Of a stretch of DNA of 64,000 bases, positions 29,486 through 44,752 are shown piece by piece (the first letter of the stretch is position 1; every line of letters starts with the position of its first letter). The translations under genes and the position numbers were made by a program. The stretch lies in IMG/VR virus record IMGVR_UViG_3300003375_000020, positions 1-64,000 of that record; one strand, 5' to 3'. The notes under the pieces were generated by a model, which was not told the origin of the DNA, ran no database searches, and saw only the letters and a program-made list of their open reading frames with translations. The stretch comes from a virus. Lineage: Duplodnaviria > Caudoviricetes.

Positions 29486-30040
29486 ATGGAAATAAAACCA
29501 AAAGAAAGGACTTTGCATTTCGCAAAACAAGTAGATCAAGATAGTATTAATCTTTTAACTAAATCTATTTTAGAAATTAATGAAGACGATGAGTATTTAA
29601 TAAAGTTAGCAGGTATTAACGATTTAGTATACATTCCAAAACCCATTAAGATTTATATTGATTCTTACGGTGGAGCAGTGTATCAAATGTTTGGTTTATT
29701 GGGTGTGATAGAAAAATCAAAAGTACCAATACACACAATTGTAACAGGTTGCGCAATGAGTTGTGGATTCATGATCTCTATAACTGGACATAGACGTTTT
29801 GCTTATGATAAAGCTACTTTCTTATATCATCAAGTAAGTACAGGTTTTTGGGGAAAAGCTAAAGACATGGAAGAAGACTTAGCTGAAATGCTTCGTTTAC
29901 AAAAAATGATCGAAGATCAAACATTAGCAAAAACAAAATTAACAAAAAAACAATTAAAAGAGTGTTACGATGGTAAGAAAGATTGGTCTTTCAATGCAGA
30001 AGAAGCATTATCATATCAAATAATTGATGAAATAATATAA
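29486..30040 (+). CDS. clpP: ClpP-like serine protease subunit
   Basis: IYIDSYGG, AMSCG (catalytic Ser) and FLYHQ (His) motifs. Confidence 0.85.
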   Translation: MEIKPKERTLHFAKQVDQDSINLLTKSILEINEDDEYLIKLAGINDLVYIPKPIKIYIDSYGGAVYQMFGLLGVIEKSKVPIHTIVTGCAMSCGFMISITGHRRFAYDKATFLYHQVSTGFWGKAKDMEEDLAEMLRLQKMIEDQTLAKTKLTKKQLKECYDGKKDWSFNAEEALSYQIIDEII

Positions 30041-30041
30041 T

Positions 30042-30434
30042 ATGGAAATTTTAATTATTATTGGATATTTCTTTTTTACAACTTTTGCAATTTTTGGATT
30101 AATTAATTTTTTACATAATAGAAAAATAGACATGAATTTAACAAACGAATTTTACTCAATTAGAGAATGGGCACAAGATAAAGGCATTTATGATAAAGGA
30201 GATGCAAAGACTCAATACATTAAATTATTAGAAGAAACAGGTGAATTGGCGAAAGCAATTCTAAAAGAAGACGAAGAAGAATTTGTAGACGCTATTGGTG
30301 ATTGTGTGGTAGTACTTACCAATCTTGCTAAATTAAAAGGGTATAATATTGAAGATTGCATTAACTCTGCTTACGAAGTTATTGCTAAGAGAAAAGGAAC
30401 CATGCAAAACGGAAGTTTTGTTAAAGAATCTTAA
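30042..30434 (+). CDS. MazG-like nucleotide pyrophosphohydrolase
   Basis: KLLEETGELAKA...DAIGD motif; alternative start at ATG 30132. Confidence 0.85.
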   Translation: MEILIIIGYFFFTTFAIFGLINFLHNRKIDMNLTNEFYSIREWAQDKGIYDKGDAKTQYIKLLEETGELAKAILKEDEEEFVDAIGDCVVVLTNLAKLKGYNIEDCINSAYEVIAKRKGTMQNGSFVKES

Positions 30435-30435
30435 T

Positions 30436-30939
30436 ATGACAAAACAAAAAAGATTAGACATTGTTTTTTTAAACATAGCGAAAGAAGTATCTGCTCTATC
30501 TCACTGTGTTAGAGCTAAAGTTGGTTGCGTTATTGTTAAAGACGGTAACGTAATTAGCTTTGGTTATAACGGCACTCCTACTGGAATGGATAATTGTTGC
30601 GAAGATAAGTTGCGTATGAATGGCGATGAAGGAGGTTGGATCGATCCAGAAACCATTGAAGCTCAATACCCTTTTGAAGATGATCATGGAAGGTACAGAT
30701 TATTTTCTAAACCCGAAGTATTACACGCAGAATCAAATGCAATTCTTAAAGCAGCAAAAATGGGGTTTTCTACTAACGAAGCCACTATGTATTTAACTCT
30801 TTCTCCATGTATTGATTGCGCGAAACTTATTCTGCAATCGGGAATAAAAAAAGTTATATATTCTGAATTATTCTATCGAGATAATGGTAGTGTAGAATTT
30901 TTAAAACAATTTATTGAAGTAGAACACTATGAATTTTAG
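30436..30939 (+). CDS. dCMP deaminase
   Basis: HCVRAKVG, GYNG, HAESNA and SPCIDC motifs; ATG 30436 preferred as start. Confidence 0.92.
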   Translation: MTKQKRLDIVFLNIAKEVSALSHCVRAKVGCVIVKDGNVISFGYNGTPTGMDNCCEDKLRMNGDEGGWIDPETIEAQYPFEDDHGRYRLFSKPEVLHAESNAILKAAKMGFSTNEATMYLTLSPCIDCAKLILQSGIKKVIYSELFYRDNGSVEFLKQFIEVEHYEF

Positions 30940-31570
30940 TAACGCAACAGAAGCATTCGAATGGTTATTTCATCACATAGATATAGCTGGAGAAAGTTTC
31001 GCAGGCACAAAAGCAGTATTTAATCAATCTTTCATTTTATTAGATCCTCAAGATAAAATCATTACTACTCCTGAAAGAAAGTTCAATTTAGAATACGCAG
31101 AGTTTGAATGGAATTGGTATTTAAAAGGCAATCGCGATGCATCAGAAATTGCAGAAAGAGCAAAGATATGGAAACAGATGATGATTCCTGGCACCACAGA
31201 AGTCAATTCTAATTACGGATATTTTTGGAATTATAACGATCAACTAAAAAGAGTCGTAGAAGATCTTAAATCTAATCCAGAAACAAGAAGAGCAATCGTA
31301 GTACATTATTTGCCACACGAAATAGATCGGTACAAATACGATACTCCTTGCAACGATGTATTAAATTTCTACATTAGAAATAATAGATTAGATCTAACAG
31401 TATTCGCAAGAAGCATAGATTTAGTTTTTGGTTTTTGTAATGACCAATTTACTTTTGCAAAATTAATGGAGAAAGTAGCTTATGAATTAAAAATCCCGGT
31501 TGGAGAAATGAATTGGCTGATTACCAATCTCCATGTATACCCAAGACATTATAACTTACTAGAAAAATAA
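30929..31570 (+). CDS. Thymidylate-synthase-family enzyme, dCMP hydroxymethylase type (T4 gp42-like)
   Basis: Catalytic Cys in TPCN; RSIDLVFGFCND has Asp at the nucleotide-specificity position, as in T4 gp42 GFRND. Confidence 0.75.
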   Translation: MNFSNATEAFEWLFHHIDIAGESFAGTKAVFNQSFILLDPQDKIITTPERKFNLEYAEFEWNWYLKGNRDASEIAERAKIWKQMMIPGTTEVNSNYGYFWNYNDQLKRVVEDLKSNPETRRAIVVHYLPHEIDRYKYDTPCNDVLNFYIRNNRLDLTVFARSIDLVFGFCNDQFTFAKLMEKVAYELKIPVGEMNWLITNLHVYPRHYNLLEK

Positions 31571-31620
31571 ATTTTTTTAGCATACTATTATTGAGTATAT
31601 TTAACATATAAATAAAAGTT

Positions 31621-32079
31621 ATGCAAGCATTCTGCGACCGAGAATTTCTCGAAGATCAATTATCACGTCTTACCCAAAAGAGTTACAATAAATTTCATTG
31701 GTGGCGCAGATACGAAATTAGAAAAGAACTAGACAAAAAAACTCCCCTTTACGAAAAGATTAGAAATGGTGATTACGATCATTCTGATTACCTTTATCAA
31801 ATGGAACACGAATTCTATTTGATGAAGGATAAACTAGTTGGTATTATCTATCCTGATGAGAGACATGATATTACTGGACTTTGTTTAGAACGTGCAAGAA
31901 GATTAAACGAAGATTATCAAAAGCACGAAAAGGAGCTCATGGCTAAGATCTATTCTGACTTTCGTAAAACATTCAACATTCAAAAAGAAGAACTAACCAA
32001 GATAATGGAAGACTTCGATGGCACACTATTGGACTTATACGATCACGTTAAAAAACTAAGTAAACATGAAAAAATATAG
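31621..32079 (+). CDS. Hypothetical protein
   Basis: 152-aa ORF. Confidence 0.55.
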   Translation: MQAFCDREFLEDQLSRLTQKSYNKFHWWRRYEIRKELDKKTPLYEKIRNGDYDHSDYLYQMEHEFYLMKDKLVGIIYPDERHDITGLCLERARRLNEDYQKHEKELMAKIYSDFRKTFNIQKEELTKIMEDFDGTLLDLYDHVKKLSKHEKI

Positions 32080-32650
32080 CAAATTAATTGTGCCCAAAGA
32101 TTCTGCGTGGGACAATACTAGATTTCAATGGGGAAGATATGTTAATTGGAGAATTAGATATTTTTTTCAAGGAGTTTGGAACATTATTAGATGGATCCCA
32201 ACAATATACAAAGATAAAGATTGGGATGATGCTTTCATTCTTATGATCTTACAAAAGAAGATAGAACACCAAAGAGCAGAATTGGTAAATGCTAATAGGC
32301 ACACTGATATCGACAATGATAATTTTTGGATGACAGTGGTTCTTAATTTGATAGACAAGGAACTTAACAGTTATTACGAAACGGAAAAATATAATTTTTG
32401 TAAAATTGAAGATAGTTTCGGTGAGCCTGATCAATACGGATCAAGAGAATGGAACATGATACTTACTGAAAATCGTTTGGATGAATATCTAAATTTATAT
32501 CCATCTGCTACAAGAAAAGTGATAAAAAAACACGGTAGAGAAAATGATACTGATTATCTTTCTTTATGTGTATGCATTTATAATCAAAGAAGGTGCAGAG
32601 ATTTAATATTTGAAATTTTAAAACAAAAATCAGCCAATTGGTGGGATTAA
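32066..32650 (+). CDS. Hypothetical protein
   Basis: 194-aa ORF ending in WWD. Confidence 0.55.
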   Translation: MKKYSKLIVPKDSAWDNTRFQWGRYVNWRIRYFFQGVWNIIRWIPTIYKDKDWDDAFILMILQKKIEHQRAELVNANRHTDIDNDNFWMTVVLNLIDKELNSYYETEKYNFCKIEDSFGEPDQYGSREWNMILTENRLDEYLNLYPSATRKVIKKHGRENDTDYLSLCVCIYNQRRCRDLIFEILKQKSANWWD

Positions 32651-32841
32651 AAAATAAGTTATGAAAAAAGAAATCAAAAAAGGAAATCTAAATTACGACG
32701 GATCAGGTAGAGCATACCCCGATAATCCACAAATAAAAAAATTGGAGTTGTATTTGGGAAAATAATGGTAAGTACGAAAACTATCAATCACACCCAGCAA
32801 TTAAAGCACAATTATCTAATTAGGACATATTTATATGTACT

Positions 32842-33093
32842 ATGATAAGATTTGCTAGACATAATAACAAAGACTATGTGATAGTAGATACCAATTTCAT
32901 AATTAATGAATGTGACGAGACCATTGAAGTACCAATTCATATTAGAGTAGATACAACAAATATATCCAAAGATCAAAATTCGTTAGTATTTAAAAAAGCA
33001 GCATTGCTTTTTAATAGATCAATCATAATTAAAAAACAATTAAATAATACGCCAGAAAAATCATGGTGGAATAAAATTTTTAAAAACAATTAA
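32842..33093 (+). CDS. Hypothetical protein
   Basis: 83-aa ORF after TATTTATA. Confidence 0.45.
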   Translation: MIRFARHNNKDYVIVDTNFIINECDETIEVPIHIRVDTTNISKDQNSLVFKKAALLFNRSIIIKKQLNNTPEKSWWNKIFKNN

Positions 33094-33095
33094 GT

Positions 33096-33356
33096 ATGTC
33101 AGTGTTATATTTTTCGGCCACTTGGTGTGGTCCTTGTCGGTCATTTAAACCACTATTACAACAAACTTCAGCAGAACTGGGAATTCCAATAAGTTACATA
33201 GATGTAGACGCAAATGGATCTATGGCTCAAAAATACAACGTTAGTTCAGTACCAACATTATTAATAACAGACACAACAGGAAACGTAGTAAAACGCCAGA
33301 TTGGAGCTAGTTCAGGAAAACACGCACTTATACAATTTCTTTCTAGTGCTAAATAA
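33096..33356 (+). CDS. trxA: Thioredoxin
   Basis: WCGPC active site; VPTL cis-Pro loop. Confidence 0.92.
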   Translation: MSVLYFSATWCGPCRSFKPLLQQTSAELGIPISYIDVDANGSMAQKYNVSSVPTLLITDTTGNVVKRQIGASSGKHALIQFLSSAK

Positions 33357-33412
33357 CTGTATATTTATATAAGACACAATATTACTAACCATAAAGGTTT
33401 ATATGAACGCCG

Positions 33413-33625
33413 ATGACTATAAAACAACTAAATATCCTAAAAGAGATATCACTTATGTTGGCCATGTTCTTCTTGCCATTTGGTTACGATGCCTTATTCA
33501 AATGGATTATGGATATAACTGGTTCATATTGGATCGCAGATATCGTTTTTTATTGTATTTCGGGTCTTTTCTTTACATTTTATATTTTCTCAAAATGGCT
33601 TTTAAATAAAAGATCTACAAATTAA
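33413..33625 (+). CDS. Small two-TM membrane protein
   Basis: Two hydrophobic segments. Confidence 0.5.
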   Translation: MTIKQLNILKEISLMLAMFFLPFGYDALFKWIMDITGSYWIADIVFYCISGLFFTFYIFSKWLLNKRSTN

Positions 33626-33648
33626 GATATTTATATAAAACTATTTAT

Positions 33649-33873
33649 ATGCAATTTGGTATTAAACAATATTGGAGTCCTACTCCAAAGTCTGTAAGAA
33701 AAGTAGCAGATTCTTTATCTGCAGCAGCAATCGCTGTAGGTGCATTTTCATTTGTTAGTGATAATAAAACAGTAGCAGTAGCCGTTTTAATAATGGCAGG
33801 AATTGGAAAATTTATTTCTAATTTATTTGCAGAAGATCCAACTACTATTACTACTGATAGTACTACCAAATAA
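33649..33873 (+). CDS. Holin-like two-TM membrane protein
   Basis: YWSPTPK..RKVAD followed by two hydrophobic helices; preceded by TATTTATA. Confidence 0.45.
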   Translation: MQFGIKQYWSPTPKSVRKVADSLSAAAIAVGAFSFVSDNKTVAVAVLIMAGIGKFISNLFAEDPTTITTDSTTK

Positions 33874-33934
33874 TCATTAAACGGAGCTCCTTTTAGTTAA
33901 AGTTTATATACAATTTAAATACGCAAAATAAATC

Positions 33935-34276
33935 ATGATAAATTTACAAGATTTATTAAAAGAGGAGTTAGAAAAGAGTGAAACTTTTTTAGAATTTTCT
34001 GGTAAAAGATTGAAGGGCGCTACAAAAATAGCAGAAGACGCAAAGAAAAAAGGTGGTCCTTCTATGTTAACTTACCAACATTTTTCTGTAAAATTGCCGT
34101 ACTATAAAAAAGCAGAATCAGGAAAACTTGATATAGAAATAGCAAAAAAAGAGTACGAAAAATTAATTAAAGAATTGTCAAAAACTTCTAAAAATATAAA
34201 ACTCACTCAAACTGAATTTCAGAAATTGGTAGGTAGAATAGAAGTATTGGGAGAATTAATCATTAAAAGTAAATAA
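33935..34276 (+). CDS. Hypothetical protein
   Basis: 113-aa ORF. Confidence 0.5.
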   Translation: MINLQDLLKEELEKSETFLEFSGKRLKGATKIAEDAKKKGGPSMLTYQHFSVKLPYYKKAESGKLDIEIAKKEYEKLIKELSKTSKNIKLTQTEFQKLVGRIEVLGELIIKSK

Positions 34277-34277
34277 C

Positions 34278-34559
34278 ATGAAAAAGATTTTATTTTTATT
34301 ATTTGTAATCTTATTTATTGGATGCGATATGCCTTATAAAATTATTGAAACTTATAAAACAGATACTAACGGAATTACTACAAAAACCGTAGAAAAAATT
34401 TATAGCTCAGGAGAAACATCTATACAAAGTACTATAGTATTAGGATACGATCCATTTTTATTTCCAAGACCTTATTATTTCGGTAGACCATATTATGGTC
34501 CTAGACCAATAATGGTAACACCTACGCCACGAATATACTCTCCAAGAGGAAAACACTAA
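34278..34559 (+). CDS. Putative lipoprotein
   Basis: Signal peptide with lipobox FIGC; Pro/Tyr/Arg-rich tail. Confidence 0.55.
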   Translation: MKKILFLLFVILFIGCDMPYKIIETYKTDTNGITTKTVEKIYSSGETSIQSTIVLGYDPFLFPRPYYFGRPYYGPRPIMVTPTPRIYSPRGKH

Positions 34560-34575
34560 TCTGATATTTATAGGT

Positions 34576-35094
34576 GTGAAAACATTATACGCATTCGACT
34601 TGGATGATACGCTAATAACTTCTAAATCATTAGTGATTGTTAGAAATAATACTACGGGAAAGACTAAAAAATTGAATGCTGCGCAATATGCTACGTACGA
34701 ACCAAAATTGGGAGATAAAGTAGATTTCAGCCAATTCGACAATTTGAATGATCCAGAGATCATAAAAAAGAATTTTGATCTTTTCTCACAGATATTAAAA
34801 AAGACAGTTACATTAAAGAACTCGAAAACTATTATCTTAACAGCAAGGACACCTAAAATAAAGAGCGATGTGTACTCTTTACTTAAATCTAAAGGTTTAC
34901 CATCTTTAAAAATACACGCTGTAGAGAGCTCAGATCCCATGGCTAAAGTAAACATTATCCAGCAATATATAGACTCAGGATATGATCGGGTGCGTTTTTA
35001 TGACGATTCCCCAAAGAACATACAGGCCGTGAATGCGATGAAGAAAGAAAATCCCAGTGTAAATCTTACCTCAAAATTGATATCATCTCACTAA
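34576..35094 (+). CDS. HAD-family phosphatase (RNA-repair/PNK-phosphatase-like)
   Basis: AFDLDDTL, ILTAR and FYDDSPKN motifs; GTG start. Confidence 0.75.
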   Translation: MKTLYAFDLDDTLITSKSLVIVRNNTTGKTKKLNAAQYATYEPKLGDKVDFSQFDNLNDPEIIKKNFDLFSQILKKTVTLKNSKTIILTARTPKIKSDVYSLLKSKGLPSLKIHAVESSDPMAKVNIIQQYIDSGYDRVRFYDDSPKNIQAVNAMKKENPSVNLTSKLISSH

Positions 35095-35168
35095 AAATGT
35101 ATATTTCTCTATCTCAAAAAAGAGTCTTATATTTATATCCTATTAATTATTAATCAAAACAAATAGTC

Positions 35169-35351
35169 ATGAAAAAAGTAGTATTAGCGCTTGCTTTCGT
35201 AGTAGTTTTAATTTCTTGTGGAAGCAATACCAATACTGGTTCTACAACAACAGTAGATACCACAAAAAAAGTAGTAGATACAGTTAAAGTAGACACAACC
35301 TTAAATCCATCCCAAAGTGGCGGTGGAAAATTAAATCAGCCATTGAAGTAA
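35169..35351 (+). CDS. Small lipoprotein
   Basis: MKK signal with LISC lipobox; VDT repeats typical of Bacteroidota. Confidence 0.6.
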   Translation: MKKVVLALAFVVVLISCGSNTNTGSTTTVDTTKKVVDTVKVDTTLNPSQSGGGKLNQPLK

Positions 35352-35433
35352 GCTGACCCCAGCGTCAGAGAGTCTGTCTGCTAAGACTACGTATTTCGAA
35401 AGGTCTTTTATTATATATTTATTATAACATAAC

Positions 35434-35931
35434 GGGGATGCCAGGCATTTGATCTAGATGCGAATGGTAGTATCACATGCAAGACGAGAGAGCGTCAAAA
35501 AACTCTTGAAAAATAAACGCAAACAAAACTGCAAACTTCGACTTCGCAAACAACGTTATCAACATGGCATTTGCTAATGCTCCTGTTGCTTTAGCAGCTT
35601 AGTCTACGGGTTGGTAACTGACCTAGGAACATAATAGTTACAAATCGTGTGAAGACGAGGCGGACTTTGGCCCGTAATTTTAGAGCTTACACAGTAGTAT
35701 GCCAATGCTACAAGTTCTTGGACTTAAACCAAGTGGTGGATTCAAAACTCGTATACCAATACGACCCGTACTAATCAGTTATTGAGCGAAGCATCGGAAC
35801 AGGAACGATAAGATCACACGTAGCCTGATGATAGCAGATTAACTCTTGTCACTGTGTACAGTATGACTAAGCATGTAAGTACGGTATTATGATTACTTTT
35901 AGAGACGTCGGTTCGAATCCGACCATCTCCA
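35434..35931 (+). ncRNA. ssrA: tmRNA
   Basis: GGGGATG / CATCTCC-A acceptor stem with G3:U70; T-arm GTCGG-TTCGAAT-CCGAC; tag ORF 35519-35602 ANKTANFDFANNVINMAFANAPVALAA*. Confidence 0.93.
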
Positions 35932-35977
35932 CTGTCACTTTTTTGTACCTTGAGCATATTTATAATAAACTATAGAT

Positions 35978-36583
35978 ATGCCAAGAGTACAACATAAATA
36001 TCATTTTATATATAAAACTACTAATTTAAAAAATGGTAAATTTTATATAGGAATGCATTCAACTTCTAATTTAGATGATGGATATTTGGGTTCTGGAGAT
36101 AAATTAAGAAGATCTATAAGAAAATACGGAAAAGAAAATTTTAAATTAGAAATTTTAGAGTATTTTGAAAATAGAGAGTTATTATCTAAAAGAGAAAAAG
36201 AATTAATTAATGAAGATGTATTGAAAGATCCAATGTGCATGAATTTAAAAGTTGGTGGAGAAGGTGGATGGCATGTATATGCTAATAAAGCATTTAAAGA
36301 AAAATTAAAAGATATAAAATATAAAGAAAATTTTTCTAGAATATGTATAGAAAGAAATAAAAAATGTTTTGAACTAGGTATTATTAAATCCTGGAATAAA
36401 ACATATGATTGGACTGATAAGTATCATACACCAGAGACCATTAAAAAAATGAAAAATTCTAAAATAGGTCATGGTAAAGGAGAATTGAATTCTCAGTTTG
36501 GAACTTTTTGGATAACTGATGGAAAGTATAATAAAAAAACAAAATATGAAATTCCTGAAGGGTGGTACAAAGGTCGCGTATAA
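35978..36583 (+). mobile_element. Free-standing Seg-like GIY-YIG homing endonuclease
   Basis: FIYKTTNLKNGKFYIGMH, YLGSG and YNLKVGGEG-like motifs; NUMOD3-like HTPETIKKM. Confidence 0.85.
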
Positions 36584-36592
36584 AAATTCTTT

Positions 36593-36658
36593 ATTGATTA
36601 TCAACTAGTTATGGTAATTGGAAACCAACTAGTTATGCTTAACTGGTTGATAACCAAT
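36593..36658. repeat. 18-bp imperfect inverted repeat
   Basis: ATTGATTATCAACTAGTT (36593-36610) vs AACTGGTTGATAACCAAT (36641-36658). Confidence 0.6.
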
Positions 36659-36762
36659 ACTGAGACTTTAAAAATAAATTTTTTTATATCAAAAATTAGT
36701 AGTAAGTTTACTATATCACAATTACAAAAAGCGTTTTATTATAAATGCACATAATTATTAGC

Positions 36763-36906
36763 ATGAAACAACATTTATTACATACAGCGACATGGCAAAT
36801 AGAACGTAGACATACGTTATCCCTAGGCTATTGTTTTATGTCGATTAATGATGTGCAAGGAAAACCTAGTAATTCACCGGGGCTTAATGATACAAATTGG
36901 GGATGA
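36763..36906 (+). CDS. Candidate attenuator leader peptide (47 aa, not in ORF track)
   Basis: MKQHLLHTATWQIERRHTLSLGYCFMSINDVQGKPSNSPGLNDTNWG*; all 20 amino acids; overlaps the antiterminator arm. Confidence 0.7.
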   Translation: MKQHLLHTATWQIERRHTLSLGYCFMSINDVQGKPSNSPGLNDTNWG

Positions 36907-36940
36907 AAAATCTCTAAATAAAAATCAAAAATTAAGCCTC
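36879..36940 (+). promoter_or_regulatory. Antiterminator helix
   Basis: GGGGCTTAAT (36879-36888) pairs over 10 bp with ATTAAGCCTC (36931-36940), which overlaps the terminator 5' arm. Confidence 0.7.
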
Positions 36941-36970
36941 AACTCAAAAAAAGTTGAGGTTTTTTATTTT
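36934..36970 (+). terminator. Intrinsic terminator immediately upstream of the tRNA array
   Basis: CCTCAACT / AGTTGAGG stem, 7-nt loop, long T-run; first tRNA starts at 36972. Confidence 0.85.
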
Positions 36971-36971
36971 T

Positions 36972-37043
36972 GGTAACATAGCTGAGATGGATTAGCGTAA
37001 GTCTGAAAAACTTGAGGACTCAGCTCGGAACTGAGAAGTACCA
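36972..37043 (+). pseudogene. Degenerate tRNA-Phe(GAA)
   Basis: D and anticodon arms intact; T-loop CTCGGAA; only 4 acceptor pairs. Confidence 0.6.
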
Positions 37044-37059
37044 CATAAATAAAGCATAA

Positions 37060-37200
37060 ATGACAAATAAACAAATTGAAGAACAAATAGCAATTATTAA
37101 AAAAGTTACAGCTGAAGCTTGTAAAAGCAAAAAAACAGCTAGAAAGTTTTTAACAGATGCAGGAATAATAAAAACAAATATGAAGAAAAATAAAAGATGA
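37060..37200 (+). CDS. Small basic protein (not in ORF track)
   Basis: 46 aa MTNKQIEEQIAIIKK...KNKR. Confidence 0.45.
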   Translation: MTNKQIEEQIAIIKKVTAEACKSKKTARKFLTDAGIIKTNMKKNKR

Positions 37201-37228
37201 AGATCTCTCTGAAGCAGGAGGGACATAT

Positions 37229-37302
37229 TCCCTCTTAGCTCAATTGGTAGATGTACGTGGCTTTTAACCATGGGGTTGTGAGTTCGAATCTCACAGGGGG
37301 CA
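37229..37302 (+). tRNA. tRNA-Lys(TTT), imperfect D stem and 1:72 mismatch
   Basis: CGTGG-CTTTTAA-CCATG; GTGAG-TTCGAAT-CTCAC. Confidence 0.7.
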
Positions 37303-37323
37303 CATAAAAATAAAATAAATAGT

Positions 37324-37548
37324 ATGTCAATTTACGCAACAAATTACATAATTGATGAAGAAACACGTGAACCAAAACTTGTTAAACATTTAAATCAAAC
37401 AAGAATTGATAGAGGTACCGCAAAAAGACCACCTGGAAAGTGGAATAAAAATGGTGCTAATCAAAAAGAAAGAAAACGTTGGAGTAAAGGAGATTCAAAA
37501 AAAGAATTTAAATTAGACAAAATGAAAAAAGACTTTGAAGGATTGTAA
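37324..37548 (+). CDS. Small basic hypothetical protein inside the tRNA array
   Basis: 74-aa K/R-rich ORF. Confidence 0.5.
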   Translation: MSIYATNYIIDEETREPKLVKHLNQTRIDRGTAKRPPGKWNKNGANQKERKRWSKGDSKKEFKLDKMKKDFEGL

Positions 37549-37567
37549 GGACTAAAACCTTACAACA

Positions 37568-37879
37568 ATGACAAACACAAGAGAATATCGTACAACAACA
37601 AACAGAAGTGTTTATAACAAACTGTATAAAGAATATAATGCTCACTGTTCTTACTGCAAATGGCATGGACCATCATCTGAAAATGATAGATATAAATGTT
37701 ATTATATAAGAGAATGGAATAATAAAAAGAAAGCTAAATATCCTAACTGGAAATTAGTATCAAAAAATCAAAAACAGTGGATGAAAAAACCATTGATTTT
37801 TAAATCAAGTATTAATCCATACAGTCCTTGGACTTATTGGATTGATATTGAATGGCCTAGTAAAATTAGACCAAAATAG
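37568..37879 (+). CDS. Basic, aromatic-rich hypothetical protein with CxxC..H
   Basis: 103 aa; CSYCKWH. Confidence 0.5.
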   Translation: MTNTREYRTTTNRSVYNKLYKEYNAHCSYCKWHGPSSENDRYKCYYIREWNNKKKAKYPNWKLVSKNQKQWMKKPLIFKSSINPYSPWTYWIDIEWPSKIRPK

Positions 37880-37885
37880 AAAAAC

Positions 37886-37954
37886 GTCGAGTTGGTGCAA
37901 TGGTAGCATACCTGATTCCAAACCAGTTGATGAGGGTTCGAATCCTACGGTGGG
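37886..37954 (+). pseudogene. Degenerate tRNA-Trp(CCA)
   Basis: TTCCAAA loop and TTCGAAT T-loop; several stem mismatches. Confidence 0.55.
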
Positions 37955-37962
37955 TGCAAAAT

Positions 37963-38034
37963 AGACTTGTAGTTTAACGGATAGAATGATTGGCTACGGA
38001 CCAATTGGTGGGAGTTCGATTCTCTCCAAGTCTA
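37963..38034 (+). tRNA. tRNA-Arg(ACG)
   Basis: AGACTTG / CAAGTCT acceptor; ATTGG-CTACGGA-CCAAT. Confidence 0.9.
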
Positions 38035-38060
38035 CAATTAAAAAATTAAAAATTAAAGTT

Positions 38061-38603
38061 ATGAGAAAGAAAATTATTTTTATTGATGTTGATGGGCCAT
38101 TGGCTTGGGCAACATGGTACGATGGTAAAGTGAAGATAAACGAAAATACTATGAATGAGTTTACAATACCTTACCCATTAGTAAAAGAGGATTGTGAAGC
38201 ATTGCAAGAAATTTGTGACAAGACTAATGCAGAATTAGTATTATCATCAGATTGGAAGTTACACTTTACTCTTAGACAAATGAGTGATACATTTATTGAG
38301 TTTGGTATTCATGCTCCATTGATTGATATCACAACACATATGAGTAGTAGAAAGCTGGGAATTTGGAATAAGATGAGTAATCCATCCTTAGAGTTTGAAA
38401 GAGCACATCAGATTGTAAAATGGGTTAAAGATAATAAGATTAGTAACTGGATTGCAATTGATGATATGAAATTAAGTGCAGAGTTCAAATGGATGAAACA
38501 TCGTATCCCAATGTGGAGGCATGTACAAGTTGATGGAGATTTTGGACGTGGTGGAAGATTGAGAGATAAGGTAGATGAATGTATTAATAAACTAAACCGA
38601 TAA
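38061..38603 (+). CDS. HAD domain protein of the Swiss-Army-knife RNA-repair type
   Basis: FIDVDG, VLSSDW and WIAIDD motifs; ATG 38061 used because the longer ORF overlaps tRNA-Arg. Confidence 0.75.
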   Translation: MRKKIIFIDVDGPLAWATWYDGKVKINENTMNEFTIPYPLVKEDCEALQEICDKTNAELVLSSDWKLHFTLRQMSDTFIEFGIHAPLIDITTHMSSRKLGIWNKMSNPSLEFERAHQIVKWVKDNKISNWIAIDDMKLSAEFKWMKHRIPMWRHVQVDGDFGRGGRLRDKVDECINKLNR

Positions 38604-38676
38604 GGCGAGTTGTCCGAGTGGATAAAGGCACAGCACTGCAAACGCTGTTACGTGAGTTCAATTCTCACCTTAACCT
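38604..38676 (+). pseudogene. Degenerate tRNA-Cys(GCA)
   Basis: CTGCAAA loop; T arm intact; 3 acceptor mismatches. Confidence 0.6.
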
Positions 38677-38705
38677 CTTTTGGATCTTTGACATATGGAA
38701 TTTAT

Positions 38706-38781
38706 CGAGATGTGGACCAATTGGCTAGGTCGCTTCATTTGGGATGAAGACATCGTGCAAGTTCGACCCTTGTCATCTCGA
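38706..38781 (+). tRNA. tRNA-Pro(TGG)
   Basis: CGAGATG / CATCTCG; CTTCA-TTTGGGA-TGAAG. Confidence 0.9.
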
Positions 38782-38872
38782 CTAAAGCTAATTTAATTCT
38801 TTTATCCCTGCTTGGAGTAAAAGTATGAAATAAACATAGTGCTTTATAACATAAAAGATAGAATTAGTATTT

Positions 38873-38947
38873 GGGGAGTCATGTACCAAGGCTTGGCGAT
38901 GCTGCTTTGCAAGCAGCGTGTGGACGGTTCGATACCGTTACTCTCCA
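38873..38947 (+). tRNA. tRNA-Ala(TGC)
   Basis: GGGGAGT / ACTCTCC with G3:U70; GCTGC-TTTGCAA-GCAGC. Confidence 0.85.
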
Positions 38948-38976
38948 CTATAGGGTGTAATTATACCTACAACAAA

Positions 38977-39027
38977 GGGAAGTTTCAGAGATGGTTCCTA
39001 ATCGCACTCTTTCAAATGCGATGGATA
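38977..39027 (+). pseudogene. Truncated tRNA remnant (TTC loop, no T arm)
   Basis: GGGAAGT...TGGTT...CGCACT-CTTTCAA-ATGCG running directly into tRNA-Val. Confidence 0.35.
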
Positions 39028-39028
39028 T

Positions 39029-39104
39029 GGGCGCTTCGCTTAGCTGGTTTTAAAGCGTCACTCTTACAAAGTGAAGATCATCCGTTCGACTCGGATAGTG
39101 CCTA
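39029..39104 (+). tRNA. tRNA-Val(TAC)
   Basis: TCACT-CTTACAA-AGTGA; ATCCG-TTCGACT-CGGAT. Confidence 0.9.
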
Positions 39105-39159
39105 CAAAGAGGACAAAATGTATAGTAGCCTCAAGGATGATATCTCCTACTATACTCAT

Positions 39160-39231
39160 GCAGCAGTAGCTCAAAGGAAGAGCGTCACATTGCCAATGTG
39201 AAGGTTGAGATTTCGAAATTCTTTTGCTGCT
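39160..39231 (+). tRNA. tRNA-Gly(GCC)
   Basis: GCAGCAG / TTGCTGC-T; TCACA-TTGCCAA-TGTGA. Confidence 0.85.
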
Positions 39232-39236
39232 CATAT

Positions 39237-39308
39237 TGCTTATTAGTATAACGGCTAGTACATTTGGTTTTGGTCCAAATAGTTGGGGTTCGAATCCCTG
39301 ATAAGCAT
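39237..39308 (+). tRNA. tRNA-Gln(TTG)
   Basis: TGCTTAT / ATAAGCA; TTTGG-TTTTGGT-CCAAA. Confidence 0.88.
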
Positions 39309-39313
39309 CATAA

Positions 39314-39395
39314 GGAGAGTCCTAAAGGAGTAGTTAGCTGTCTTGAAAACAGTGAAGAGGTAACACTTGTGAGGGTTCGAGTCCGTCACTCTCCG
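39314..39395 (+). tRNA. tRNA-Ser(TGA), poor D arm
   Basis: GGAGAGT / ACTCTCC-G; CTTGAAA loop; long variable arm. Confidence 0.7.
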
Positions 39396-39499
39396 CTAAA
39401 ACATTCCGAAACCCAGGCACAAATTGTTGGTGGAGTATGATACGTAAAGTATCCCGAGACAGCAGGGGAAATAACGTTAAGAGGAATGTTTTTTAATAT

Positions 39500-39571
39500 G
39501 GGTCTTGAAGCTTTAAGGTGAAGTGCATGTTTGTGGCACATGAGAACTCGGTTCGATACCGTGCTAGACCC
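39500..39571 (+). tRNA. tRNA-His(GTG) with encoded G-1
   Basis: G-1:C73; CATGT-TTGTGGC-ACATG. Confidence 0.85.
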
Positions 39572-39654
39572 CGGCACCATGATAAAACTTGGTACGTAAC
39601 AAGTGGATAGAAGATTATGTCTAGGCTAGATAGGTTTTGCTTTTATCAAATTTT

Positions 39655-39739
39655 GGAAGTTTGCTCGAAAGGTAAGAGGCCAGTTTGCTAAACTGAAGCC
39701 TGGGTAAAACCAGAAGTGGCTCGGTACCACTAACTTCCG
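39655..39739 (+). tRNA. tRNA-Ser(GCT), non-canonical T loop
   Basis: GGAAGTT / AACTTCC-G; TTGCTAA loop; variable arm; T loop CTCGGTA. Confidence 0.78.
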
Positions 39740-39811
39740 CTACTTTACACAAAGTGTATGGTGCTGGCAAGACTTAAAAATGGTCTCGAAGACAATGCCT
39801 AAAGTTGTCCT

Positions 39812-39836
39812 CTCTACCTACGGGGTAGAGTTTTTT
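39812..39836 (+). terminator. Terminator-like hairpin inside the tRNA array
   Basis: CTCTACC / GGTAGAG followed by TTTTTT, directly before tRNA-Ile. Confidence 0.65.
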
Positions 39837-39908
39837 GGAGATATAGTAGAATGGTAAGCACACATGACTGATACTCATGGAATCCAAGTTCGAGCCTTGG
39901 TATCTCCA
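39837..39908 (+). tRNA. tRNA-Ile(GAT)
   Basis: GGAGATA / TATCTCC-A; CATGA-CTGATAC-TCATG; weak D stem. Confidence 0.78.
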
Positions 39909-39918
39909 CACAATATAA

Positions 39919-40006
39919 GGACGGGTTGCTTTAGAGGCCGAAAAGTCTAGACTGTTAATCTAGTGTCGAAAGACCATCGTGAGTTCGAATCTCACCTCGT
40001 CCTCCA
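39919..40006 (+). tRNA. tRNA with Asn anticodon (GTT), long variable arm and encoded CCA
   Basis: CTAGA-CTGTTAA-TCTAG; variable arm GTC-GAAA-GAC. Confidence 0.85.
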
Positions 40007-40015
40007 CATTTATAA

Positions 40016-40097
40016 GCCAACGTCGCATAGTGGCAATTGCAGCAGACTGTAAATTTGTTCTCTTCGGAGTTCGAAGGTTCGAGTCCTTCCGGTGGCA
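40016..40097 (+). tRNA. tRNA-Tyr(GTA)
   Basis: CTGTAAA loop; variable arm CTC-TTCG-GAG; A73. Confidence 0.88.
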
Positions 40098-40134
40098 CAT
40101 TAAAAATATAGTTTTTATATACAGCTTAATGTAG

Positions 40135-40142
40135 TATATTTA
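40135..40142 (+). promoter_or_regulatory. Possible internal promoter (-7-like TATATTTA) within the tRNA array
   Basis: AT-rich 60-nt spacer with a TAnnTTTA box 16 nt before tRNA-Glu. Confidence 0.4.
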
Positions 40143-40158
40143 CTATATATTAAACAAT

Positions 40159-40230
40159 GCTCTTGTCATCTAATGGTTAGGATGTCAAATTTTCGATTTG
40201 AAAATGAGGGTTCGATTCCCTTCAAGAGTA
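40159..40230 (+). tRNA. tRNA-Glu(TTC)
   Basis: GCTCTTG / CAAGAGT; TCAAA-TTTTCGA-TTTGA. Confidence 0.88.
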
Positions 40231-40256
40231 CTTTTAAATCACTATACAATAAATAA

Positions 40257-40333
40257 CGAAAGTGGGGCTGCTAGGCTGTGGCCGCTGGATTGTCACTCCA
40301 GATATCAGGCGAGTTCGAATCTCGTACTTTCGG
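40257..40333 (+). tRNA. tRNA-Asp(GTC)
   Basis: CGAAAGT / ACTTTCG-G73; CTGGA-TTGTCAC-TCCAG. Confidence 0.85.
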
Positions 40334-40407
40334 CAGAATGTTACCTATTGGAATAACCAGCGCATGACGTGGTTGGCGTCCGACTTGGAGAGTAGGTAAT
40401 TTTTCAT

Positions 40408-40481
40408 TGATCCTTAGCTCATCAGGTTAGAGCAAGTGACTCATAATCATTAGGTGACCAGTTCGAGTCTGGTAGGATCAA
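40408..40481 (+). tRNA. tRNA(CAT): Met or Ile2
   Basis: TGATCCT / AGGATCA; AGTGA-CTCATAA-TCATT. Confidence 0.88.
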
Positions 40482-40490
40482 CTTTAATAT

Positions 40491-40560
40491 TGCGAGGAAG
40501 TGAATAGGTATCACGCTAGTCTCATAAGCTAGAGAACCGGATCAATACCGGCGATCGCAA
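40491..40560 (+). tRNA. Atypical tRNA(CAT), fMet-like body
   Basis: CTAGT-CTCATAA-GCTAG; T loop ATCAATA; two acceptor mismatches. Confidence 0.6.
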
Positions 40561-40783
40561 CTAAAATTTTGCTAGAAAGTAAATGAGTGATGTAGTTATA
40601 GAAGTGTAAAGACTATCGCATTACAGTAGTATCAGCTACGTTCATTTATTAGTATAGGTAGTTAGCTTGGGCGGTTGGCTGAAACGAAGTAATTCGTAGT
40701 CATATTAATATAAGGATAGGTTAAATTCCTATACGGTTCTTTCTAACTTACTACACTCTGATAAGTGTACAAAATTTTAAAAT

Positions 40784-40855
40784 CGCATTATGGTGAAAAG
40801 GCTATCACAGAGTCCTCATAAGGCTTTATTCCAATTTCGAGTATTGGTAATGCGA
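40784..40855 (+). tRNA. tRNA(CAT): Met
   Basis: CGCATTA / TAATGCG-A; GAGTC-CTCATAA-GGCTT. Confidence 0.85.
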
Positions 40856-40860
40856 CATTT

Positions 40861-40935
40861 GGTTGATTAGTTCAGCTGGTTTAAGAACACTTGCCTTGTA
40901 AGCATGAGACTTCGGTTCGAATCCGAAATTGACCT
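40861..40935 (+). tRNA. tRNA-Thr(TGT)
   Basis: GGTTGAT / ATTGACC; CTTGTAA loop; TTCGG-TTCGAAT-CCGAA. Confidence 0.85.
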
Positions 40936-41028
40936 CCCTAGTTATACCAGAGAAGTTAGGTAGTATAAACAGCCCTCCTGTCCACAGGTCACCGCGAGGA
41001 GGTTGGTTGGTGACGAGGCTTCTCAAAT

Positions 41029-41100
41029 GCAGATATCGTATAATGGCTATTACTCCATCCTTCCAAGTTGGAGATGTAGGTTCGATTCCTATTATCTGCT
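41029..41100 (+). tRNA. tRNA-Gly(TCC)
   Basis: GCAGATA / TATCTGC-T; CTTCCAA loop. Confidence 0.88.
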
Positions 41101-41320
41101 CACGAGCTGGTTATAAATAATCAACAGCTAGTTCCATCCTGAATGATGAGAAGCGGAGGTGATGCCCGTATGGATTCCTAGAGTGTAGTAGGGGAACACT
41201 TAAAGCTCATCAAGCTTGTACCTAATAAAGTCAAATTGATTATTCCTAACTTATTCGGTTTGGAACCGGGTAAGGACAGCTAAGACACCTGTGAGTTGGA
41301 TAAATAAAGGTGTCACTTTT

Positions 41321-41396
41321 GGTCCTGTAGCATAACGGATTAATGCAACAATCTTCTAAATTGTTTTTTATAAGAGTTCGAATCTCTTCAGGACCT
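41321..41396 (+). tRNA. tRNA-Arg(TCT)
   Basis: GGTCCTG / CAGGACC; ACAAT-CTTCTAA-ATTGT. Confidence 0.9.
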
Positions 41397-41412
41397 CTAA
41401 AAATGAAAGAAT

Positions 41413-41616
41413 ATGATTTGGTTAATTGAACTGATTTGGTTATTAAGTATTGTATATGTCATTCATAGAATGATAGGAAGTAATAATAAAAAATCTTTAG
41501 ATGGTGTTATAGGAAACACGCCAGGATTTGATGCAATAATATTTGTATGGGGAGCACCATTTTTTGCATTAGTTGATTTAGGTGCAAGATGGATTTCACA
41601 CATGAAGCATAAATAA
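41413..41616 (+). CDS. Small two-TM membrane protein
   Basis: Two hydrophobic helices. Confidence 0.5.
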   Translation: MIWLIELIWLLSIVYVIHRMIGSNNKKSLDGVIGNTPGFDAIIFVWGAPFFALVDLGARWISHMKHK

Positions 41617-41620
41617 AAAT

Positions 41621-41650
41621 TGTTGAGTGGCGAAATTGGCAGACGCACCT
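41621..41650 (+). pseudogene. Orphan 5' third (acceptor strand + D arm) of a tRNA-like gene
   Basis: TGTTGAG-TG-GCG-AAATTGGCAGA-CGC-ACC, then the endonuclease ORF. Confidence 0.7.
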
Positions 41651-41684
41651 TTTTGTTAATTTATAATATTTATCATAAAGAGGT

Positions 41685-42350
41685 ATGAGTGCTATAATTT
41701 ATGAAACGGTAAATTTATTTAACAAAAAGAATAACATACTTCCTTATAGGTATATTGGAAGTGATCAACACAACAAACCTAGCTATTTAGGAAGCAGTAA
41801 AGAACTATGTGTAGATATAAAAAAACTAGGAGTAGATCAATTTGAAAAAAGAACTCTTTGTGAATTTAAAGAGGAGATTTCTAATATACTGCTAAGAAAA
41901 ATAGAATCTCAAATTCAAACCTATTTAGGAGTAGCAAAAGATGAAACTTATTACAACAGGACAAATAGCTCTCTTAGAGGTTATGAGGAAACTGATGAAC
42001 AGAGAGAAGCTAGAAAAGTTAACTTGTTAAAGAATAGAAAAATTTGGTGGGAATCTCTAACTGAAGAACAAAGGGAAGAAGAAAAAAAGAAAAGTGGAAA
42101 GTTTTTAGCCGCTTATAATAGATCAACTAAAGGAAAAACTTATGAGGAGATTTTTGGAGCAGAAAAAGCAAAGCTTAAAAAAGAGAAACACTCAGGAGGC
42201 AACAACAGTAATGCTAAAAAAGTATTACATAAGCCTTCAAATAAAATTTTTAATTCTGCTTTGGAGGCAATGAACTTTTTTAGCATAAAAAGATATGGAA
42301 GTTTGTATACAAGAATTAAAAAAGGTGAATTTGAATTTTTAAAAAGCTAA
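41685..42350 (+). mobile_element. Seg-like GIY-YIG homing endonuclease
   Basis: IIYETVN...RYIGSD...YLGSS; YYNRTN; KGKTYEEIFG; C-terminal HTH-like region. Confidence 0.8.
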
Positions 42351-42354
42351 ACAC

Positions 42355-42509
42355 TGTTTCCTGGCGAAACGCTGAAAAGCTTGGCAGACGCGCTCCTCTT
42401 GTCTCGAGGGTGTGGAGCAACTAATAAAGATTGGATAATGGGTTGACCACAAAGCGCGCAATGTCCTCTTCCTAAAGTCCACGTCATGGTTCGAATCCAT
42501 GGGAAACAG
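42355..42509 (+). ncRNA. 155-nt tRNA-like RNA with extra D-loop hairpin and about 74-nt variable arm
   Basis: TGTTTCC / GGAAACA acceptor; GCG/CGC D stem; TCCTC-TTGTCTC-GAGGG; CATGG-TTCGAAT-CCATG. Confidence 0.75.
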
Positions 42510-42588
42510 CAATAGTACGTTCGTAAGTAGCCGGTTTAAAACTATTCAAATAAGGAAACACGGCCTCCCTAAAAATGGGGGACATCAA

Positions 42589-42661
42589 GCACCTGTAGCC
42601 CAACGGGAGAGGCAATAGACTTAGGATCTATTCAGTGTCGGTTCGAATCCGACTAGGTGTA
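42589..42661 (+). tRNA. tRNA-Leu(TAG), short variable loop
   Basis: ATAGA-CTTAGGA-TCTAT; 5-nt variable loop; A73. Confidence 0.88.
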
Positions 42662-42769
42662 CAAAAGAAACAGAAGTGTTTAATGAATGTAGTTTTCTCA
42701 TTATGTTTCTTCCGGCCGTAGTTAGACTTCAAGATAAACTCATTCAAAGCTGGGTCGCTCCCAGTGCAT

Positions 42770-42844
42770 GCCTGTGTGACGTAAATGGCATACCGTATCA
42801 GACTTAAAATCTGAGTCATGTGGGTTCGAATCCCATCACTGGTA
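42770..42844 (+). tRNA. tRNA-Leu(TAA), short variable loop
   Basis: TCAGA-CTTAAAA-TCTGA; 5-nt variable loop; A73. Confidence 0.85.
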
Positions 42845-42876
42845 CTTTTAATATTTATTAAAAAAAGGAGGTTTAC

Positions 42877-43341
42877 ATGGAAAGGCAATTTAGAACATTA
42901 GAAAAGCGCCAACCAATTGATTTGATTCCGTATGTTAAAGATCATTTAATAAAATTCCCAGATTCTGAGATTTTAGTTGGATGTGATTCTCAAAATCAAG
43001 GAAGAAAAACTATTTACGCAGTAGTAATTGGTATGTACAACCCAGGTAAAGGAGCTCATGTATTATTTGCGATGTTCGACGAACCAAGAGTAAGATTGAC
43101 TGAAAACTCAGTTAGATTATTAAATGAAGTTTGGTATTCAGTAGAAGTAGCAGAAAAATTAAAATCAGAATTAGGAATAATTGCAAAATGGATTGATATA
43201 GATTTAAATCCAGATCCTAAATGGCAGTCTAATAAAGCATTAACTAACGCAGTTGGTATCGTAACTAGCATGGGTTACCATGTTAGACACAAAGGACTTT
43301 CTCCAGTTATGACTTATGCTGCTGACAAATTAGTTAAATAA
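42877..43341 (+). CDS. YkuK/DUF458-like RNase H-fold protein
   Basis: ILVGCDSQ, RLLNEVWYS, IDIDLN and YAADK motifs. Confidence 0.8.
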   Translation: MERQFRTLEKRQPIDLIPYVKDHLIKFPDSEILVGCDSQNQGRKTIYAVVIGMYNPGKGAHVLFAMFDEPRVRLTENSVRLLNEVWYSVEVAEKLKSELGIIAKWIDIDLNPDPKWQSNKALTNAVGIVTSMGYHVRHKGLSPVMTYAADKLVK

Positions 43342-43422
43342 TTTAAATGAATATTAATGTATCTTAAAAAATAGTACTATATTTATAAAGGAACCTTCCC
43401 TAAAAATATAGTACTATTTTTT

Positions 43423-44481: not shown

Positions 44482-44492
44482 AATATTAAAAA

Positions 44493-44699: not shown

Positions 44700-44752
44700 T
44701 AGTATCTTATTTACATATATACTAAGTATATTTATTAGAAATAATAATTTAC

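Follow-up and report, generated by a model that had tools for sequence, protein, structure and literature searches.

A candidate ribosome-operated attenuator at the head of a phage tRNA operon, with a leader that may test the decoding of every amino acid

The attenuators of amino-acid operons (trpL, hisL, leuL, thrL, pheL and ilvL) pair a short leader that is translated with an intrinsic terminator and an antiterminator that competes with it. An early stall of the ribosome permits read-through, a ribosome at the end of the leader brings about termination, and what the regulated genes supply relieves the shortage to which the leader responds. Such leader-peptide attenuators have been analysed kinetically (PMC1183508). 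A broader signal is reported for the upstream open reading frame (uORF) of whiB7 in mycobacteria, where stalling on the uORF leads to antitermination, many amino-acid, tRNA and synthetase defects are activating, and the composition of the uORF sets what is sensed (PMC10274678). Control of tRNA genes in phages is little known; recent reports regard phage tRNAs as substitutes for host tRNAs cut by defence nucleases (PMC10264068, PMC11464382, PMC11555353). Here we describe a locus built like the amino-acid operon attenuators in the first 64 kb (hereafter the window) of the 83-kb IMG/VR virus record IMGVR_UViG_3300003375_000020, in which a 47-codon open reading frame (ORF), the leader ORF, precedes an intrinsic terminator and a large tRNA array. 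On the basis of a comparison with relatives, we consider it rather probable that a phage tRNA operon is headed here by a transcription attenuator which the ribosome operates and whose leader tests the decoding of every amino acid.

Leader family, translation and competing helices

Relatives of the leader were gathered by protein searches with the peptide and with alignments, by scans of loci and by a hidden Markov model search of 1.8 billion representatives. The resulting family comprises 50 distinct peptides of 41-51 residues, with 28 distinct loci for which DNA is available, from uncultured, mostly lake (freshwater) samples and from phages related to Bacteroidota phages. No isolate phage turned up, the phage collection containing no record that encodes the leader; a DNA search with the leader region matched only tRNA-Phe, and blastn with the relatives' tRNAs returned unrelated tRNA matches only. 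All 28 distinct DNA loci share one order, namely a TATATTTA-type promoter box, the ORF, an intrinsic terminator, tRNA-Phe (another GAA tRNA in L042-L046) and a large tRNA array, and L006 and L039 show a compact, probably ancestral form of it. The genes upstream of the leader vary among loci (tmRNA, DUF4494 genes or others), which, next to this constant order, argues that the leader unit belongs to the tRNA array. The distance from stop codon to tRNA is 55-68 nt in most loci, a gap too small for a promoter, so that intact tRNA-Phe would be made only by read-through of the terminator.

Several features of the alignment indicate translation. First, 12 residues are invariant across 16 DNA sequences and their codons differ only synonymously, including TTR versus CTN at Leu. 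Second, the start codons ATG, GTG and TTG share one aligned position, the position of the stop is conserved too, and gaps in the ORF are 3, 6 or 9 nt long. Third, the entropy at codon positions 1, 2 and 3 is 0.49, 0.58 and 0.88 bits. Finally, the median ratio of nonsynonymous to synonymous change (dN/dS) is ~0.39 up to an invariant Pro, with purifying selection on residues 6-35, and the peptide is unconstrained after this Pro. On the basis of the synonymous-only change, the in-frame gaps, the shared start position and the dN/dS of 0.39, the leader ORF looks translated. A second in-frame ATG is present in the window at 36745, and the family alignment sets the start at 36763.

A terminator is present in every locus, as a hairpin of -12 to -18 kcal/mol plus a U tract. 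Its covariation is strong: 95.8% of cells are paired and 8 of the 11 pairs show compensatory double changes, a level that none of 500 shuffles attained. The ORF tail pairs with the 5' arm of this terminator and its flank in all loci, and the resulting duplex reaches -12 to -24 kcal/mol compared to -6 to -9 for shuffled tails in 27 of the 28 loci; in L037 the arm was mis-set by the script, and the pairing CCAGGGC/GCCCTGG was seen by eye. A first-pass annotation, made from the letters of the window alone, had proposed a 10-bp pairing of codons 39-42 with the terminator arm, and this helix is indeed there with 9 Watson-Crick pairs and one G-U (-14.6 kcal/mol versus -6.4 for shuffles). The two alternative folds of the window are near-equal in energy, at -24.3 kcal/mol for the antiterminator and -23.8 kcal/mol for the terminator.

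The paired words differ from lineage to lineage: GGGGCTTAAT/ATTAAGCCTC in the window, TCAGGGTTTAAA/TTTAAGCCCTGA in L006, CCAAGGCT/AGCCTTGG in L034, ACCAGAGC/GCTCTGGT in L035 and AACCAGGA/TCCTGGTT in L018. Moreover, they fall in differing reading frames (CCA GGG versus AAC CAG GAT), and because they covary across frames, the constraint on the tail must act on the RNA and not on the peptide. In alignment A4 the covariation of the antiterminator helix is 0.268, compared to 0.199±0.019 in shuffles and 0.06-0.10 when the helix is slid. Attenuators of the trp type also have an anti-antiterminator or pause hairpin (segment 1:2), owing to which the untranslated leader terminates; not all attenuators share it. 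For the 5' strand of the antiterminator (region 2), no upstream masking partner better than chance was found (mean z -0.2), and an untranslated leader should thus form the antiterminator, termination requiring a ribosome on the tail. The logic proposed in the first-pass annotation, in which a ribosome at the stop keeps the array off and an early stall turns it on, thereby gains comparative backing, with no anti-antiterminator in the scheme.

The spacing of these elements was compared as well. Region 2 begins to pair 8-14 nt beyond the first nucleotide of the invariant Pro codon. From the end of the helix to the stop there are 2-17 nt, from the stop to the terminator arm 20-30 nt, and the U tract abuts tRNA-Phe. 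The usual bacterial toeprint lies ~+16 from the P site. Given this footprint, a ribosome with Pro in its A site would just reach region 2, and Pro would thus mark the last stall codon that leaves the antiterminator free. Taking translation, terminator and antiterminator together, we regard the attenuator anatomy as very likely real.

Three further helices were predicted in and around the ORF. The nested helix over the stop codon that had been annotated at the outset does appear in the predicted fold; relatives have some nested helix at this place, in a sequence unlike that of the window. A small hairpin (AACGU-N6-ACGUU) is predicted in all relatives and draws weak support from one A-U to G-C compensation (L029), being broken in L018 and L035. 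A third hairpin, H1, emerged from an RNAalifold consensus: its pair 75-104 is C-G in 12, U-G in 4 and U-A in 2 sequences, and its energy is modest. A role of H1 as anti-antiterminator was rejected, as it stops short of region 2 and predicted folds contain it alongside the antiterminator; that it serves as a pause site or the like is a guess.

Amino-acid and codon content of the leader

The leader ORF runs from the ATG at 36763 to the TGA at 36904-36906. As first annotated, its 47 sense codons comprise 31 different codons and encode all 20 amino acids, the set being complete at codon 35, and both codons of five isoacceptor pairs are present (CGT/AGA, GGC/GGA, TTA/CTA, TCN/AGT and ATT/ATA, with AGT as codon 36). 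Across the window, 1.5% of stop-free 47-residue stretches reach 20 amino acids, as do 0.13% of 35-residue stretches (7 places). Rare codons account for 8 of the leader's 34, which places it in the top 1.5% of equivalent stretches across the phage's genes. Judged on this single sequence, completeness could be luck.

The family speaks more strongly. All 20 amino acids are encoded by 43 of the 50 leaders, compared to 24.7±3.0 in column shuffles. In the core set 27 of 27 leaders have 20 residues, 25 of them being complete by the invariant Pro and 2 by Pro+1; column shuffles of this set gave 13.3-13.8±2.1 complete leaders of 26, with a maximum of 20 in 5,000 shuffles, against 24-26 observed. We also conducted a phylogeny-aware simulation on the family tree, with site-specific frequencies and a complete ancestor, calibrated by nearest-neighbour identity (mean pairwise identity being uninformative). 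At scale 2.0, not one of 1,500 runs ended with all 27 tips complete by Pro+1, even though simulated nearest-neighbour identity (0.77, compared to 0.75 observed) was still slightly above the real value and the test thus erred, if at all, on the lenient side; at the lenient scale of 0.5 the probability was 0.007. A divergent set of 23 members, found afterwards, contains 16 complete leaders versus 7.7±2.1 expected (maximum 14). Residues also move: Ala, Val and Glu occupy different columns in different lineages, and a lost Glu14 often reappears elsewhere (P0027, P0040, P0043).

The same holds for codons. We scored the classes CGN/AGR for Arg, TTR/CTN for Leu, TCN/AGY for Ser, GGY/GGR for Gly and ATY/ATA for Ile against the synonymous usage of the window, and both classes were present in the sensing part in 80 of 85 cases among 17 leaders, compared to 42±4.3 expected (maximum 57), the counts being non-independent through shared ancestry. 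Of the genome's Arg codons 11% are CGN, yet CGN is present in 17 of 17 leaders, and where AGA is lost at position 16 it is back elsewhere in 4 of 6 cases. Selection for completeness, beyond the column, phylogeny-aware and synonymous-codon nulls, is thus supported by the comparison. The first-pass annotation had predicted that relatives would conserve codon diversity and helices and not the peptide: completeness, codon classes and tail helices are kept, whereas the first 35 residues are conserved as amino acids too, so that the prediction was right for the tail only. The all-amino-acid content is likewise kept beyond the nulls, yet not absolutely, as detailed below.

The codons of the leader match the product of the array in an unusual form, with all 20 residues on one side and tRNAs for nearly all residues on the other. 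Leaders without Glu before Pro (L039 and the clade of L043/L046, L047 and L048) are followed by arrays that lack tRNA-Glu, whereas tRNA-Glu is present in the array behind 6 of 6 Glu-containing leaders with readable arrays. The genes of the L039 array stand so close together that a missed one would find no space; in the L043 array Rfam revealed no extra tRNA, and an odd tRNA at 11629 is not Glu. L043 and L048 carry a tRNA-Glu ~3 kb further on, behind the tmRNA gene. It is suggestive that leader Glu and array tRNA-Glu were lost together. For the comparison of leader and array beyond Glu, the sequence of L041 (no Leu) ends before the Leu tRNAs, and P0023 (no Val) is a peptide only.

These observations can be joined in the following mechanism. 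Transcription would initiate at the nearby upstream promoter box, a ribosome would begin the 47-codon leader, and its progress would enter a timing race with RNA polymerase. If the tail is empty once the terminator arm has been made, region 2 and its flanks would pair with the arm to form the antiterminator, and the polymerase would read into tRNA-Phe and the array. If instead the ribosome keeps pace, it would stand on the tail or the stop when the arm emerges, the terminator would form and the transcript would end at 36971. Since each of 20 amino acids is represented by one or a few codons among codons 1-35, as are the two codon classes for Arg, Leu, Ser, Gly and Ile, too little of any single charged tRNA would delay the ribosome upstream of the tail and open the array, and the direction of regulation in vivo would be that of a negative feedback on tRNA supply. 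That the leader senses all tRNAs is, on balance, somewhat more plausible than its opposite. More tentatively, the leader may be a test strip that co-evolves with the array, holding before Pro a codon for each tRNA supplied and dropping it with its tRNA (as for Glu), and so acting as a homeostat that would restore any depleted tRNA, for instance after attack by a host anticodon nuclease.

Promoter, first tRNA, array and neighbouring genes in the window

The window has a G+C content of 31%, and its long ORFs all lie on the + strand. Its GroEL shares 53% identity with the GroEL of Flavobacterium phage vB_FspM_immuto and ~50% with those of Bacteroides phages, which makes a Bacteroidota host likely. 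The long ORFs are open under the standard code, with no sign of recoding seen. The order of genes at the locus is tmRNA, a GIY-YIG segB-like endonuclease gene, the leader region (Table 1), the terminator, a tRNA-Phe-like gene and 22 tRNA genes up to 42845.

Table 1. Elements of the leader region and the array behind it, in window coordinates
Feature	Position	Strand	Description and support
Upstream element, inverted repeat CAACTAGTTA...TAACTGGTTG	36617..36692	+	Second copy, 83% identical, at G000:C1:75502-75575; conserved in L004/L005
Promoter -7 box TAAGTTTA, Bacteroidota type	36703..36710	+	Consensus match
Sensing part of leader ORF, codons 1-35, to the invariant Pro codon	36763..36867	+	All 20 amino acids; dN/dS 0.39; synonymous-only change in 12 invariant columns
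Small hairpin AACGU-N6-ACGUU within codons 14-19	36803..36818	+	Predicted in all relatives
Hairpin H1 (CTAGG...CCTAG enclosing TTGYTTT/AARGMAA), ending just before the antiterminator strand	36823..36869	+	RNAalifold consensus
Leader ORF tail, codons 36-47 plus TGA	36868..36906	+	Peptide unconserved; saturated at the amino-acid level, still complementary to the terminator arm
Antiterminator 5' strand (region 2), codons 39-42	36879..36888	+	GGGGCTTAAT
Nested hairpin across the stop codon	36897..36917	+	TTGGGGAT (36897-36904) with ATCTCTAA (36910-36917), in predicted fold
Antiterminator 3' strand (region 3), 7-nt overlap with the terminator 5' arm	36931..36940	+	ATTAAGCCTC
Intrinsic terminator, 11-bp stem, 7-nt loop, plus U tract	36934..36971 (hairpin 36934-36962)	+	-14.1 kcal/mol, z -5.0
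tRNA-Phe(GAA)-like gene, first behind the switch, chimeric	36972..37043	+	Starts directly after the U tract
tRNA array, 22 ARAGORN calls	37229..42845	+	Interrupted by ORFs, an internal terminator and a promoter box

The -7 box of the leader promoter was matched to the TAnnTTTG-like consensus of Bacteroidota. Its context gtagTAAGTTTActatat matches an intergenic box, gtagTATATTTActatat, at 40135. Further copies of TATATTTA occupy intergenic positions in the window, and in most relatives the box lies 17-27 nt ahead of the start codon. The second copy of the upstream element (G000:C1:75502-75575, equal to L002:1501-1575) also precedes a TATATTTA box; the inverted repeat CAACTAGTTA/TAACTGRTTG thus sits 45-75 nt upstream of two of this phage's promoter boxes, and it is possible that the element is an operator of the leader promoter.

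Gene callers label the leader ORF a hypothetical protein, and its database copy (P0001, 36763-36921) has 52 residues, the gene caller having taken the TGA stop as Trp. The tRNA-like gene that had been placed 2 nt after the U tract does follow the terminator, starting directly behind it. Its 5' half is identical to that of L004, and its 3' half is closer to the rest of the family (0.83) than to L004 (0.58), so that the gene looks like a recombination scar; behind it comes a different small ORF (37060-37200).

Several ORFs have invaded the array of the window. One of them (37986-38603) matches HAD_SAK_2, a HAD domain of 'Swiss Army Knife' RNA repair proteins (E 9e-20), which hints that the phage may also repair damaged tRNA. 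In the arrays of relatives, L043:11629-11704 is a tRNA of 61 bits with an 8-nt anticodon loop, in which ARAGORN reads the 4-base anticodon CCTA and which could be a CUA suppressor or frameshift-type tRNA; L040:11324-11396 is a tRNA with anticodon TCA, designated SeC by ARAGORN and so opal-reading, and L040:12586-14118 is a 510-residue gene with a faint TROVE (Ro60-like) match.

Upstream of the leader, a phage tmRNA gene at 35434-35934 (70.7 bits in Rfam, with no ARAGORN call) has a TATATTTA promoter box of its own at 35414. Among relatives, L004, L005 and L007 have tmRNA directly ahead of the leader, whereas in L006, L043 and L048 it is located several kb beyond the array. The GIY-YIG (SegE/segB-like) homing endonuclease gene sits between tmRNA and leader, at 35978-36583. 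It is absent from the near-identical contigs L004/L005, where the leader directly follows tmRNA, which points to a recent insertion.

Alternative explanations and comparison with described systems

A number of observations weigh against a leader that tests every amino acid and commands the whole array. With respect to content, 7 of the 50 members are incomplete and lack 1-5 residues (three are without Glu, one each without Val, Cys or Leu, and one member is degenerate); L040 has a leader without Cys, yet its array has tRNA-Cys; and the joint loss of Glu and tRNA-Glu comes from two lineages only. The shuffle nulls ignore or merely approximate relatedness, and their column frequencies derive from the same sequences. 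Residue order is conserved in codons 6-35, for which a pure composition sensor has no need, and the conserved duplicates Leu19/Leu21, Gln12/Gln32 and Gly22/Gly33 hint at other constraints, be it the peptide itself, the small hairpin or H1. Part of this order follows from singleton residues being hard to move, and part may stem from the small hairpin and H1, which use conserved ACG, CGT, GG and CC bases. With respect to control, L037 has 127 nt between stop and tRNA-Phe (L037:4776-4900) and a promoter-like TATATTTAC box after the terminator, possibly a bypass of the switch in a lineage whose leader also lost Glu. The first tRNA of the window is probably defective: it scores 28.9 bits in Rfam (cut-off 29) without an ARAGORN call, and its acceptor stem has 4 of 7 pairs compared to 5-7 of 7 in relatives with the same script. 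The internal terminator and promoter of which the first-pass annotation had warned were found, as a terminator-like hairpin at 39812-39830 (before tRNA-Ile) and a TATATTTA box at 40135-40142 (before tRNA-Glu); the array is thus probably split into at least two transcription units, and the switch in the window most likely governs the first part only. Finally, coupling of transcription and translation in the host is assumed.

The best surviving alternative keeps the ribosome-dependent attenuator, the best-supported part of the scheme, and lets it report general translation status or infection timing, the amino-acid make-up being a by-product of constraints on peptide or RNA. Leaders that sense stalling in general are known, such as bmrB (PMC4191407), vmlR (PMC9226507) and the whiB7 uORF (PMC10274678), and the incomplete members, the Cys counter-example, the conserved residue order with its duplicates and the overlap of the hairpins with conserved ACG, CGT, GG and CC all sit well with it. 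It does not, however, predict completeness above column and phylogeny nulls in two separate sets, nor the relocation of Ala, Val and Glu, the excess of leaders with both codon classes or the joint loss of the Glu codon and tRNA-Glu, and we consider it unlikely.

Purifying selection on residues 6-35, a promoter and terminator of its own and the annotation as a hypothetical protein would also suit an ORF for a small phage protein that has a function of its own, in which case the terminator would be a leaky gene end and the tail/arm pairing would serve, for example, RNA stability. Against this, the tail is free at the peptide level and yet covaries with the terminator arm across reading frames, tRNA-Phe requires read-through, and locus scans placed the ORF always at the head of a tRNA array and never elsewhere. 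In addition, the peptide has no PHROG match and no Pfam domain, and AlphaFold2 predicted no fold, at low confidence (pLDDT 61, pTM 0.25). We judge a protein of this kind improbable.

Less probable still, to the point of being very doubtful, is an arrest peptide, in the manner of SecM, TnaC or MifM, whose nascent chain stalls the ribosome at the invariant Pro in answer to a ligand or factor and so exposes the antiterminator. The invariant Pro follows [GD][KNQ], with aromatic residues 10-12 positions upstream and a tight 8-14 nt spacing to region 2, as such a switch might have; no known arrest motif is matched, however, the GG and CC bases also pair in H1, completeness and the codon-class excess are left unexplained, and the low-confidence model is silent on contacts with the tunnel. 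An untranslated RNA element (riboswitch or T-box-like) with an incidental ORF, for which the terminator/antiterminator pair and some invariant synonymous sites (ACG, CGT) could be adduced, is hardly credible and was rejected on three-base periodicity, in-frame gaps, conserved start and stop, the dN/dS of 0.39, the weakness of conserved structure in the ORF (-5.3 kcal/mol) and an Rfam cmscan of 30000-46000 at E up to 1, which returned tmRNA, tRNAs and chance matches only and, at 36590-36971, no match to a leader family (Trp, His, Leu, Thr or Phe) or T-box.

If the attenuator that tests every amino acid is real, it would adjust tRNA supply to demand and serve as a natural sensor of how fast any codon is translated. 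It would also broaden leader-peptide attenuation from a single amino acid to all of them, from genes for enzymes to genes for tRNAs, and to phages of Bacteroidota-like hosts. The leader switch would also be a compact part for synthetic biology, and it yields testable predictions. A full-text literature search did not uncover a published account of control over tRNA genes by a leader with all amino acids.

Unlike the leaders of amino-acid operons, the phage leader has no runs of a single codon and offers approximately one codon for each of 20 amino acids within 34-37 codons. It regulates tRNAs instead of enzymes, its ORF runs through the antiterminator strand, and it has three segments instead of four, lacking the 1:2 anti-antiterminator, so that an untranslated leader should read through. 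The phage leader resembles the whiB7 uORF in the breadth of its signal; the two have no sequence relation, the whiB7 uORF being enriched in Ala and controlling a transcription factor, whereas the phage leader is balanced and controls phage tRNA genes. With bmrB-bmrCD (PMC4191407) and vmlR (PMC9226507) it shares ribosome-mediated transcription attenuation that answers generally slowed translation. By contrast, bmrB and vmlR respond to antibiotics, and the genes under their control encode transporters or ABCF factors. To our knowledge, compositional completeness has not been reported for their leaders. T-box riboswitches likewise sense tRNA charging and choose between terminator and antiterminator upstream of translation-related genes, whereas a T-box is untranslated and directly binds one uncharged tRNA, and the phage leader carries a clear coding signature and no T-box match. 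Compared to the literature found, what is new in the phage locus is thus that tRNAs are the regulated genes, that the leader is compositionally complete and not enriched in one residue, and that a three-segment design would make read-through the default.

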